Assembly: GCA_024275955.1 (NCBI GenBank)
Contig: JAJRYD010000005.1
Span: 7,480 to 71,479, forward strand
Source of the DNA: Nitrospirota bacterium
Lineage (GTDB): Bacteria; Nitrospinota_A; UBA7883; JACRGQ01
Length of the DNA stretch: 64,000 nt
Reading direction: 5' to 3'
Part shown: piece after piece, positions 60,001 through 63,000 of the stretch
Numbering within the stretch: position 1 is the stretch's first letter
How the letters are laid out: every line of letters starts with the position of its first letter
Position numbers: made by a program

Positions 60001-63000
60001 TAGTGATCGCTGACCATAGAAAGTGCTTCCCTGCTTGTTATTTTTCCACCTTCTGAGATGAGGTCGTAAAACAGTTTGACGACCTCCTCCGGCGGGGTCT
60101 TTGGCAGTTCACCTTCAGTGGCCGGCTTTTCGTTATTGCTACTGCATCCATGCAAAAGAGCGACAGTCAGCAGAAGCAGGCTCAAAGTCTTTAATATTTT
60201 TTTCATAGTTCCCCTGCCAAGCCTAAAAAAGATAGGGCGGCTGTGCTTAACAGCACAGCCGCCCTTTAAGCTAGCAAAAATAAAAACTCTCTATATGGTA
60301 GGCTCGCTACCAGATTTAAGAGTGTTCCTAAGTTTGTTGGTTCCAACAAGCCATTCGGACTCGCCTTCGGAAAGAAGAAGCTCCTGCTCCGAGACTCTGT
60401 CGTAGTCGCCTACTCCAAGAGAAGCGGTGCCGCCCGGAGGATCAACAAAGAACGTTCCCCTCATCTCGAGATGAAGAGGTCCGCAGAAATGCTGACAATA
60501 GAACTCGAACTCACCAGCGACGTCGGCGGTGAACTCAGAGACCATCGACATACCACGAGGTCCGATAATCATGGTCTTTGGTCCGTAGTATCCGGCTATC
60601 ACCATACCCATAGTAACGTCCGGGTTCTTTGTAAGACCGGCCGCTTTATCTATGTTGGTAAAGATAATACGTACTTTAGCACCCTGAGGAACATGCAGGA
60701 ACCTCGGTACATAACCGTAAGAGAAAGCTTTGATACGCAGAACGTAAACATCGCCGTCTTTAGTCATGCCAGGCTTGCCGTTATCCCTCGGCACCCACCA
60801 CTTTTTCGCGTGATTGGTGTGGTGTGGCTCGATCTGAGGCCGTACTGGGCCTCTAAGGCCAGGGCGACCTTTGTCGTTGAATGAAATCTGAACATCACCC
60901 AAGCTATAGCCCTTAGTGAAGAGATCGTTACCTTTACCTGTATTCCATCTCTGGATGTAGGAAGCGAATATCTGGCGGCCTTCATGCGGCTCACCATCAA
61001 CAGGTATGATCTTGACACTCTTACCGTATGTTGGGCTGGTTTCGTCTATGTCCTGCAACTCAAAGTTAACAGCGAACACGATACCTGTAGGGGTAAAGAG
61101 TCCGGTTGAGAACTTGTTTTGAGAAACATAGTACGCGTTATCCGGCGCTATGGAATTGTGACCAACCCTGTAATGGATAGGGAACTCATCCACAAGCTGC
61201 ATCCTCTGCAGATCTACTTTGGAAGTAGAGTCAGACACGAAGCTCGATATGTAGTCGTACTTACCAAGCGTATCTATCTGGTTGTGCAGTGGGCCGGCGC
61301 CAACAGGTATAACTCTGTGAACTTTGAGCTTCTCAACATCTATTATAGAAAGAGTAGCCGAAAGCTTATCACAAACAGTAACGATTCTGCCTGTTGGGCT
61401 AACATTGGTACCGTGCGGGTTTTTACCAACTGGAATCTCTTTAATCAGCTTAAAAGGATTCTGGCTGAAAACCATTACCGCGGAGTGGTAATAGTTGCCC
61501 GAGAAAACGTATTTTCCGTTTCTACCGGTATCTGGGTAATCCGGCGCAGATGGCGCAGGTGGAATATCCAGAACAGTGGTAGCACCATCAGAAAGCCTGA
61601 GTTTCAGCATTTTACCTGTGAGCTCGCCAGTGGCGAACAGGTATTTACCGTTCGGAGAAAGCGCGGCACTGTGGTGGATACCAAAAGGTTTTGGAAGAGC
61701 AAAAATTCTCTCTGTCCAACCTGTCTGGAGGTTCACCTCCGCGATAGTGTCCGAACCTTTATCTGAAACATAAAGGTATTTTCCATCTGGAGTACCGTTG
61801 TTGTTTCCTGCGTTAGATCCCGAAAACGGGAAGTTGTGCAGATCAACACCGGTTCTTATATGTCTATATGTCCTCATCGACGGGATACCGATAACGCCTA
61901 TGGCACCATCAACGCCGCCAGCGTCGTATAGTATCGCGTAGTCACGCAGAGGGGCATCATTGTCCATTCCCTCAACAACGTGCCAATCACGTTTATCGAA
62001 ATCCGTAAGGACGACCTTCTTAGCGTCAGCAGGTACTGCACAAAGCAGTAGCGCCACAGCCAAAGAAAGGCTTAATATCATCCTTTTCTTCAAAGTAACT
62101 CACCCCCTCAATTATCGTTCGTGTTTGTAGTAGGATCCTGCCGCGGCATCCGCCGCGAGTCTCTTTACTAGATAGTCATTCGGATCAAGAATGTCTATCC
62201 TGCGTGCCTGCCATTTCTTATCCTTGTAGTACCCGAAAGCGGCGATAAGATCGCCTTTCTTCAGCTCCTTGAACTTCTTGAACTCACCACGATTTGCAGT
62301 CATGACATAGCCTTCTTTGTGAAGAACCAATTTATACTTCTTGGATTTCTTCTCAAATTTAGTAGCTATAGTAAGCTTACGATTACCAATTTTAACTATC
62401 TCGCCAATATGCATGTTGTCGGTAATACTGGAACCGTTACCGAGAACACCAGCCGAAGCCGGCGCAGTCTGAGTCCCCAAAAAGAGACCCAAGGCAAAAA
62501 CAGTTGCAAGAACAAAATTTATCTTTTTCACTAGCTCACCCCCCTTCAAGATAATTACTTTTAAAAATACAATCTTTAAAAAATGCTCTATCCGATGCAT
62601 AAAGCCCCACCATTAACCCAAGTATCTACTGCAATCCATATGCCAAAAAAACATTAAATAGCTAGATAGTTACACTAACTAACTTCCCCTAAATCAGTAT
62701 ACTACAGCTATGATAATTCCTAAATCAAGCTTTAAAAACCGCAAAATCACACCAAAAATGCGGGGTTTTGAATATCTCCAATACTACCTTAAATTCCAAT
62801 GCGTTAAAGAGAGTAGAAACTTTCTCTATCTCCTTAATTATTCAAAAAACATCCGCAACATTTCGTTAATAGTTAACGAAACGCTCTACCCTATTTCGTC
62901 GATTTATTTACTTACCTACCAATAACTTAGAGGCCAAATCCGGCCTGAGCTGAGCAAGCTTACTCAATTCTTCCAAAGCCTCTTTCTTCATTCCAAGCCT

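Follow-up and report, generated by a model that had tools for sequence, protein, structure and literature searches.

We analyzed a stretch of 64,000 nucleotides (nts) from the genome assembly of a Nitrospirota bacterium (GenBank GCA_024275955.1, contig JAJRYD010000005.1, positions 7,480 to 71,479 of the forward strand), which we call the window. On its reverse strand the window carries a gene for a 600-amino-acid (aa) protein, hereafter the query, that belongs to the lactonase-type nitrous oxide reductases (L-NosZ, or clade III NosZ). In the query, the histidine that is the first ligand of the CuA copper site in canonical NosZ is replaced by a methionine, Met495. The L-NosZ proteins divide into two groups at this position, called Met-type and His-type below. 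The gene and the parts of its product that matter here are listed first; the numbering of the P. stutzeri (Ps) ligands is that of PMC8179356.

60291..62093, reverse strand: L-nosZ, encoding the 600-aa Met-type clade III L-NosZ (open reading frame [ORF] listing, Pfam, NCBIfam, AlphaFold2, and Foldseek)
62022..62093, reverse strand: putative Sec-type signal peptide MKKRMILSLSLAVALLLCAVPADA, read from the sequence
61833..61838, reverse strand: H86-N87, the remnant of the D-x-H-H motif; H86 corresponds to Ps H129 and N87 to Ps H130 (alignments)
61671..61676, reverse strand: H140-H141; H140 corresponds to Ps H178 and H141, an extra invariant histidine, to Ps G179 (alignments)
61485..61487, reverse strand: His203, in the short B-C turn of propeller blade 3, invariant in Met-type proteins and K or R in His-type proteins (alignment and AlphaFold2)
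61413..61415, reverse strand: H227, corresponding to the CuZ ligand Ps H326 (alignments)
61284..61286, reverse strand: H270, corresponding to the CuZ ligand Ps H382 (alignments)
61173..61175, reverse strand: H307, also invariant (close homolog set)
61158..61160, reverse strand: H312, corresponding to the CuZ ligand Ps H433 (alignments)
60984..60986, reverse strand: H370, corresponding to the CuZ ligand Ps H494 (alignments)
60609..60611, reverse strand: Met495 codon, aligned with the first CuA histidine, Ps H583 (three alignments and invariance)
60462..60497, reverse strand: CuA loop C533-Q-H535-F-C537-G-P-L-H541-L-E-M544, in which C533, C537, H541, and M544 are invariant
60294..60440, reverse strand: C-terminal extension, aa 552 to 600, with a conserved L-x-V-G-D-Y-D motif (alignment and AlphaFold2)

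The ORF starts with TTG, 7 nts past a Shine-Dalgarno-like run, GGGGGTG; in the NCBI copy of the protein (596 aa) the start is placed 4 codons downstream of the 600-aa call. By reading, the signal peptide has an A-x-A site and is without a twin-arginine motif. Anchoring of the protein as a lipoprotein is unlikely because Cys18 is not conserved among its homologs. A seven-bladed propeller (about aa 50 to 380) is followed by a linker, a cupredoxin domain (about aa 440 to 551), and the C-terminal extension. The Pfam families YNCE, Lactonase, and nos_propeller matched the query, and Cupredoxin_1 matched below its cut-off (20.6 versus 27 bits). In NCBIfam, the equivalog model for L-NosZ, NF052460.1, gave a single dominant match of 599.7 bits (E = 3.4e-180) that covered all 480 model positions. 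The models for canonical NosZ scored 119.6 bits (TIGR04244, clade I, twin-arginine translocation) and 164.2 bits (TIGR04246, clade II, Sec), below the cut-off of 625.

An AlphaFold2 model of the query, built on a 117-sequence alignment, had a mean predicted local distance difference test (pLDDT) score of 86.7 and a predicted template modeling score of 0.88. The modeled fold comprises seven propeller blades and a cupredoxin sandwich, followed by a confidently predicted C-terminal extension (pLDDT of 89 to 96 for aa 551 to 600); confidence was lower in the stretches 481 to 490 and 531 to 550. When the model was compared with the PDB by Foldseek, the best 50 matches were all NosZ (E of about 4e-31, about 20% identity), and no experimental L-NosZ structure was among the matches. 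The full-length template modeling scores of about 0.49, with a root mean square deviation of about 17 Å, come from a monomer model and probably reflect a different placement of the domains in it.

Full-length identity between the query and the L-NosZ of Desulfitobacterium nosdiversum is 39%. With its lactonase/YncE-type propeller and C-terminal cupredoxin domain the query has the two domains that define L-NosZ, and according to Pfam, AlphaFold2, Foldseek, and the tree described below, it groups with L-NosZ and not with clade I or clade II. Its fold, phylogeny, CuZ ligands, and gene context all place it in the L-NosZ lineage. It departs from the definition of that family in two respects: its NCBIfam score is below the cut-off, and its CuA ligands are not the canonical set. 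A first-pass annotation of the window had considered that the protein might found a new NosZ-related family. That idea has to be given up: the family has been published as clade III by He et al. (Nature 646:152, 2025, as cited by later papers), and the exchange of Met for His at CuA is a variant within it. According to the papers citing He et al., L-NosZ proteins are divergent in sequence, are structurally similar to NosZ, are encoded without the canonical nos accessory genes, and have been reported from Nitrospinota, Nitrospirota, Desulfobacterota, and other phyla.

The CuA ligands of P. stutzeri NosZ are H583, C618, W620 (through its carbonyl), C622, H626, and M629 (PMC8179356). In the query these map, in the same order, to M495, C533, H535 (the carbonyl of which would be the ligand), C537, H541, and M544. 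The C533-x3-C537-x3-H541-x2-M544 block is intact, as the first-pass annotation had said. Its second statement, that a Met stands where the first His should be, was borne out by three alignment methods. Met495 lies 38 residues before C533 in D492-V-T-M495-G-M497 (nts 60603 to 60620, reverse strand), where canonical NosZ and CuA cupredoxins read D-x-x-H-G-(F/W), about 35 to 40 residues ahead of C-x3-C. A phmmer search of the PDB placed PDVTMGMVI on DDLTHGFTM of A. cycloclastes NosZ (2IWF) and on EDVS(H583 variants)GFVV of P. stutzeri NosZ. When a 118-sequence family profile was aligned by hhalign with four clade I NosZ sequences, which were fetched from plasmids, M495 again fell on the first CuA histidine (probability 100, E = 7e-60). 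An L-INS-i alignment that included clade I, clade II, and intermediate sequences put Met495 in the column of Ps H583.

Met495 was invariant in the close homolog set (118/118, comprising the query and 117 sequences 52 to 100% identical to it), in a widened set (169/169), and in the genome loci (66/66). Also invariant in the close set were C533, C537, H541, M544, H86, H140, H141, H203, H270, H307, H312, and H370, and H227 was present in 117 of the 118 sequences. The sole conserved histidine in the cupredoxin domain of the 169 Met-type proteins was H541. The residues flanking M495 (D, V/I, and T/I before it and G plus an aromatic residue after it) are the same as those around canonical H583, and thus the side chain of Met495 should occupy the position of the histidine. 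The exchange of H583 for methionine is a conserved, selected feature and not the result of chance or error.

The seven CuZ ligands of the P. stutzeri enzyme are H129, H130, H178, H326, H382, H433, and H494 (PMC8179356). Six of these were recovered in the query; the equivalent of H130 is N87, since residues 84 to 87 read D-L-H-N in place of D-x-H-H. Residue 87 is Glu in most relatives and Asn in the query. The first-pass annotation had pointed to the HH pair at 140 and 141, which is real, and had doubted that the spacing of the other histidines fits a CuZ site, which was mistaken, as six ligands are in register. The profile alignment thus neither placed a histidine at the CuA position nor recovered all seven CuZ histidines. 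We rejected the 140-141 pair as the canonical D-x-H-H pair because H140 aligns with Ps H178. H141 is likely to stand in for the missing H130 as a ligand of Cu3; in the AlphaFold2 model it opens the innermost strand of blade 2, a place that fits a residue lining the central channel. The set of H86, H140, H141, H227, H270, H312, and H370 is patterned as in Desulfitobacterium Sab5 and Sporomusa acidovorans, and because these validated L-NosZ enzymes have the same pattern, the CuZ site of the query is compatible with N2O reduction. Met-type and His-type proteins have H86-(E/N)87 and H140-H141 in common; therefore, the loss of the second histidine of D-x-H-H and the gain of the blade 2 histidine predate the change at CuA.

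The division of clade III was found with an exhaustive search of representatives and a second homolog search. The His-type branch is small (P0123, about 14 clusters, and P0128) and reads NDPAP(M/V)HGF around the first CuA ligand. The Met-type branch, which includes the query, is much larger (169 protein clusters and 66 genome loci). Residues 495 and 203 form the pair M/H in Met-type proteins versus H/K or H/R in His-type proteins, with no exceptions in 184 proteins and 80 loci. Residue 78 is nearly always His in the Met type and is L or V in the His type. The 80 loci (66 Met-type and 14 His-type) were those examined among 119 confirmed ones. All 66 Met-type loci came from metagenome-assembled genomes (MAGs), and the titles of the Met-type records name Nitrospinota, Nitrospirota, Gallionella and other Nitrosomonadales, Zetaproteobacteria, Magnetococcales, "Deltaproteobacteria," and various Gamma- and Alphaproteobacteria. 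The NCBI name carried by the close homologs of the query is "beta-propeller fold lactonase family protein."

Among the 21 proteins scored against NF052460, P0123 ranked highest (914 bits). Its 90% cluster holds WP_425804335.1, which is UniProt P0DXY7, "Nitrous-oxide reductase, Desulfitobacterium nosdiversum." Physiological data are available for just two clade III organisms, D. nosdiversum Sab5 (enrichment) and Sporomusa acidovorans Mol (axenic) (PMC13274427). Both the Sab5 and the S. acidovorans loci are of the His type; their residue 203 is K or R, and their residue 78 is L.

In a neighbor-joining tree (200 bootstraps), support was 100% for the Met-type proteins, 93% for the core His-type proteins, 99% for all lactonase-type proteins, and 100% for the closest homologs of the query, several of which are named Nitrospinota; the branching order among the lactonase-type groups was not resolved. 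Because the histidine is found in clade I, in clade II, in His-type L-NosZ, and in distant lactonase-cupredoxin proteins, Met495 is, on this distribution, a derived state with a single origin.

Some relatives outside the window have lost other ligands. P0121, a 1,139-aa fusion protein, is 54% identical to the query over its N-terminal half and is without the CuA cysteines, the blade 2 HH pair, and the last CuZ histidine; it is probably a noncatalytic paralog. Lacking these residues, it shows how ligands that are not needed decay under relaxed selection in the L-NosZ family. We rejected the possibility that the query itself is a pseudogene or degenerate copy because all of its remaining ligands are invariant, while P0121 has lost them. 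Two pairs of distant proteins that join a lactonase propeller to a cupredoxin domain (P0125/P0142 and P0129/P0207) have the full canonical CuA set, including the first histidine, and several or most of their CuZ histidines are gone. The lactonase-cupredoxin scaffold thus seems to have been used with other chemistries at the propeller center.

The C-terminal extension also separates the groups: L559, G562, and Y564 are conserved in Met-type proteins, and the alignment has gaps at these positions in His-type and canonical NosZ.

Downstream of L-nosZ lie the following features.

60234..60265, reverse strand: terminator-like hairpin with a 14-bp stem, 10 G-C pairs, and a T-run, immediately past the L-nosZ stop codon and ahead of the lipoprotein gene (terminator scan)
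59682..60206, reverse strand: 174-aa lipoprotein, conserved beside Met-type L-nosZ (tblastn)
59030..59752, reverse strand: cytochrome b6-like, ExtP-like membrane subunit, 240 aa (Pfam Cytochrome_B, 8e-30; NCBIfam cytochrome b6, ExtP)
58312..59064, reverse strand: subunit-IV-like membrane protein, 250 aa, with a PEW(V/Y) motif (PEWV in the query's neighbor) and one CxxCH heme c motif (sequence)
57006..58334, reverse strand: Vgb-lyase/NHL-like beta-propeller, 442 aa, with a hydrophobic stretch near the C terminus (Pfam Vgb_lyase, 6e-49)
55975..57009, reverse strand: second Vgb-lyase/NHL-like beta-propeller, 344 aa (Pfam Vgb_lyase, 6e-51)

Scans of the region for promoters and terminators gave totals that were not above the shuffle expectation, and the hairpin at 60234 to 60265 is a lead only. 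Its position suggests that most L-nosZ transcripts may carry this gene alone and that some continue past the hairpin to the cytochrome and propeller genes. The order L-nosZ, lipoprotein, cytochrome b, subunit-IV-like heme c protein, propeller, propeller is kept in a Hyphomicrobiales MAG (L-NosZ of 804 bits) and also in many further Met-type loci, and the CxxCH motif of the subunit-IV-like protein is conserved in its Hyphomicrobiales and Desulfitobacterium counterparts. We searched the 80 loci with tblastn. The cytochrome b gene was found in 32/66 Met-type and 14/14 His-type loci, the lipoprotein gene in 34/66 and 0/14, and the propeller genes in 36/66 and 0/14; the Met-type counts are lower bounds, as many Met-type contigs are short. 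No match to the nosD, nosF, nosY, or nosL families was found among the scanned ORFs of at least 180 aa across the window. Within that scan, the context is the one expected of L-NosZ, namely, no nosDFYL and adjacent cytochrome genes, in agreement with PMC13477213. The lipoprotein and the two NHL-like propellers are candidate accessory factors specific to the Met type, for docking or, since no nosDFYL match was found, possibly for maturation.

Other genes near the cluster were recorded as well. Large spermidine-synthase-like proteins with TPR repeats are encoded on both sides of it (53090 to 55978 and 62908 to 63951, both on the reverse strand); in the one of 962 aa, the N-terminal half is long and hydrophobic. 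At 62112 to 62600, next to the L-nosZ cluster, a secreted protein of 162 aa is encoded. The synteny of these flanking genes is kept in loci with L-NosZ proteins 72 to 83% identical to the query, most of them in MAGs named Nitrospinota. A multiheme c-type cytochrome gene at 51359 to 52507 on the forward strand is preceded by genes for a PMT_2-like membrane protein and a 212-aa protein without a family match (region 49292 to 52507).

Elsewhere in clade III the surroundings vary. In a Gallionellales metagenome contig, a Met-type L-nosZ gene lies amid at least five c-type cytochrome genes and a gene for a protein like cytochrome bd subunit I, with no cytochrome b module; a propeller gene is about 9 kb from L-nosZ. 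Judging by gene content, the electron donor system differs among Met-type lineages. In Desulfitobacterium sp. Sab5, the His-type gene is followed by genes for cytochrome b, a CxxCH membrane protein, a FixH/YtkA-like protein, MacB/FtsX-type ABC transporters, and a BNR/sortilin-like propeller, and a sigma-54 two-component pair lies upstream.

From these observations we favor, as the reasonably probable reading, that the query is a periplasmic, Sec-exported Met-type L-NosZ with a binuclear Cys2-His-Met2 variant of CuA, fed by the adjacent cytochrome b/c module. We consider it quite probable that the query is a working N2O reductase whose electron-entry site is modified. The CuA site would still be binuclear, with one copper bound by the two cysteines, Met495, and Met544 in an all-sulfur environment and the other bound by the two cysteines, His541, and the backbone carbonyl. 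A CuA site has its first histidine and its axial methionine on the same copper, so Met495 would give that copper a Cys2Met2 sphere. Its counterpart H583 is a ligand of CuA1 in P. stutzeri N2O reductase (PsN2OR) (PMC8179356). Thioether ligation stabilizes Cu(I), and for this reason an all-sulfur sphere would favor Cu(I) and probably raise the potential above the canonical value of about +260 mV (PMC8179356). H583 in PsN2OR can be bound to the copper or flipped away from it, and a gating role in electron transfer has been proposed for it (PMC8179356); Met495 would remove this flipping, protonatable histidine, which is proposed to gate proton-coupled electron transfer.

A protonatable group might be supplied from elsewhere. 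In the alignment, His203 falls at Ps S258, where the Ca2+ loop (N257-D273) that is deleted in L-NosZ begins, and in the AlphaFold2 model it lies in a turn of four residues between the strands 195 to 200 and 205 to 211. In PsN2OR this loop, the CuZ of its own subunit, and the CuA of the partner together make up a single composite active site, and the order of the loop tracks the occupancy of CuA (PMC8179356). His203, gained together with Met495, would supply a protonatable group beside the Met-ligated CuA; less likely, it would ligate copper in trans. We regard it as the best candidate for the protonatable role because it arose with Met495 and takes the place of the canonical Ca2+ loop, which faces the partner's CuA; this proton role is a hypothesis built on one covariation event and on topology. 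The quinol pool would most likely be the electron source, with the cytochrome b6-like subunit and the monoheme c of the subunit-IV-like protein passing electrons on to CuA and from there to CuZ, where N2O would be reduced to N2.

Several points weigh against this reading. The query does not reach the curated cut-off of NF052460.1, which is 700 bits. That cut-off divides the Met-type proteins: four score 749 to 804 bits (in clusters named Nitrospirota, Gammaproteobacteria, and Hyphomicrobiales), two score 653 and 696, and five, which share 69 to 87% identity with the query and include two from clusters named Nitrospinota, score 566 to 605. At position 583 of PsN2OR, only protonatable residues (His, Asp, and Glu) reportedly supported electron transfer, and by that rule a Met there would be inactive unless compensated. 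The covariation of M495 and H203 represents one evolutionary event and is no statistical proof that the two are coupled. Binding of copper by Met495, the substitution of H141 for H130, and the proximity of H203 to the partner's CuA are proposed from alignment and beta-propeller topology. Lastly, we found no biochemical or physiological evidence for a Met-type protein in the literature, in which the founding paper is represented here by the papers that cite it.

Other explanations of the missing histidine lead to different predictions. A mere misalignment would arise if the canonical histidine were shifted by the 6-residue insertion (KAAGLTKNP) that Met-type and His-type proteins share just upstream of residue 495. 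The His-type proteins have the same insertion and yet have their histidine in exactly the aligned column. We rejected this explanation, which is virtually excluded, because the query has no histidine between residues 467 and 535, only H541 is conserved in the Met-type cupredoxin domain, and the three alignment methods agree. That the site is mononuclear or half occupied, with copper held by one Cys, His541, and a Met, and that no CuA forms without the first histidine, would fit the loss of one of the two canonical His ligands and the lower AlphaFold2 confidence at 481 to 490 and 531 to 550. We think this very unlikely: none of the 169 sequences varies at the two cysteines of C-x3-C, at H541, or at M544; low pLDDT values are expected around an empty metal loop; and the H583 variants of PsN2OR and the His variants of CuA-azurin reportedly still form a binuclear site. 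The first-pass annotation had left the choice between a variant binuclear and a mononuclear site open; the binuclear form is the most economical since the Met is conserved.

Two further explanations are unlikely to about the same degree. In one, the missing imidazole is supplied in trans by His203 (or His78) of the partner subunit in a head-to-tail dimer; this residue would bind CuA1 and preserve a Cys2-His2-Met set, with Met495 in the second sphere. The Met type has gained no specific histidines other than H203 and H78, and H203 is in the B-C turn on the top face of blade 3, in place of the canonical Ca2+ loop, which contacts the partner's CuA region. To our knowledge, however, a CuA ligand from another subunit is without precedent, and the backbone context of residue 495 is kept as if its side chain points at the metal. 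In the other, Met-type proteins are not N2O reductases at all, and the altered entry site and the accessory genes mark a different substrate or role. The His-type enzymes are the only ones with physiological support; all 66 Met-type loci are from MAGs, many of them named Nitrospinota, Nitrospirota, Gallionella, Zetaproteobacteria, or Magnetococcales; the Met type has accessory genes of its own; and the distant relatives P0125 and P0129 are without several or most of the CuZ histidines, so the scaffold may have been reused. Against this, every histidine at a CuZ position is identical to that of the validated L-NosZ enzymes and is invariant, and it is the catalytic site, not the electron-entry site, that sets the substrate.

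Clade III nosZ genes are already counted toward N2O sinks; in one study they made up 10 to 40% of nosZ abundance in incubated lake sediments (PMC13477213). We suggest, tentatively and with considerable doubt, that the bulk of environmental "clade III nosZ" (from Nitrospinota, Nitrospirota, Gallionellaceae, Zetaproteobacteria, Magnetococcales, and others) encodes an enzyme class whose electron-entry site has a Cys2Met2 copper or a histidine reaching across the subunit interface or, alternatively, a class that does not reduce N2O. If most of the clade III genes that have been counted are Met-type, then the function of these genes is being deduced from two His-type Firmicutes enzymes in which one metal ligand is different. 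If Met-type proteins are not N2O reductases, counts of "clade III nosZ" overstate the potential for an N2O sink. A natural, conserved His-to-Met change at a CuA ligand, if it is what it appears to be, tests the need for a protonatable ligand and would serve the study of how CuA potentials are tuned. There is also a gap in annotation: the NCBI model for L-NosZ leaves the Nitrospinota branch under the lactonase name given above.

Among known systems, the CuA domain of heme-copper oxidase subunit II (Thermus ba3, PDB 2CUA) resembles the query in its cupredoxin fold and its C-x3-C-x3-H-x2-M loop (phmmer E of about 3e-5); unlike the query, oxidase subunit II keeps the first histidine and has no propeller. 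Canonical NosZ (P. stutzeri N2OR, PDB 3SBP and 6RL0) shares with the query the propeller and cupredoxin domains, six of the seven CuZ histidines, and the Cys, Cys, His, and Met of CuA. The query differs from canonical NosZ in being only about 20 to 26% identical to it, in having no equivalents of H130 and H583, no Ca2+ loop, and no long N-terminal insertion, and in its lack of nosRDFYL. In the engineered H583 variants of P. stutzeri N2OR (PDB 7AQ2 to 7AQ9; Zhang, Bill, Kroneck, and Einsle, JACS 2021), the same CuA ligand has been replaced, and A, D, E, N, F, Y, and W variants were among the Foldseek matches; no Met variant was among the entries listed. Unlike in those laboratory variants, the Met of the query is natural and invariant and is accompanied by H203, H78, and the C-terminal extension.

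The closest comparison is with the His-type L-NosZ enzymes of D. nosdiversum Sab5 and S. acidovorans DSM 3132. These have the same two-domain architecture, a single His plus Glu or Asn in place of D-x-H-H, the H-H pair in blade 2, the remaining CuZ histidines, the deletion of the Ca2+ loop, the 6-residue insertion before the first CuA ligand, and the C-x3-C-x3-H-x2-M loop; they also have a cytochrome b gene adjacent and no nosDFYL next to L-nosZ. On NF052460 the query scores 599.7 bits versus 914 for P0123, which is at least 90% identical to the D. nosdiversum enzyme. The Firmicutes enzyme has a lipobox (LAGC), whereas the query has a Sec signal with an A-x-A site. The query is also set apart from the two enzymes by Met as the first CuA ligand, His203 (versus K or R), His78 (versus L or V), a structured C-terminal extension of about 50 aa, and adjacent genes for a lipoprotein and two NHL-like propellers.

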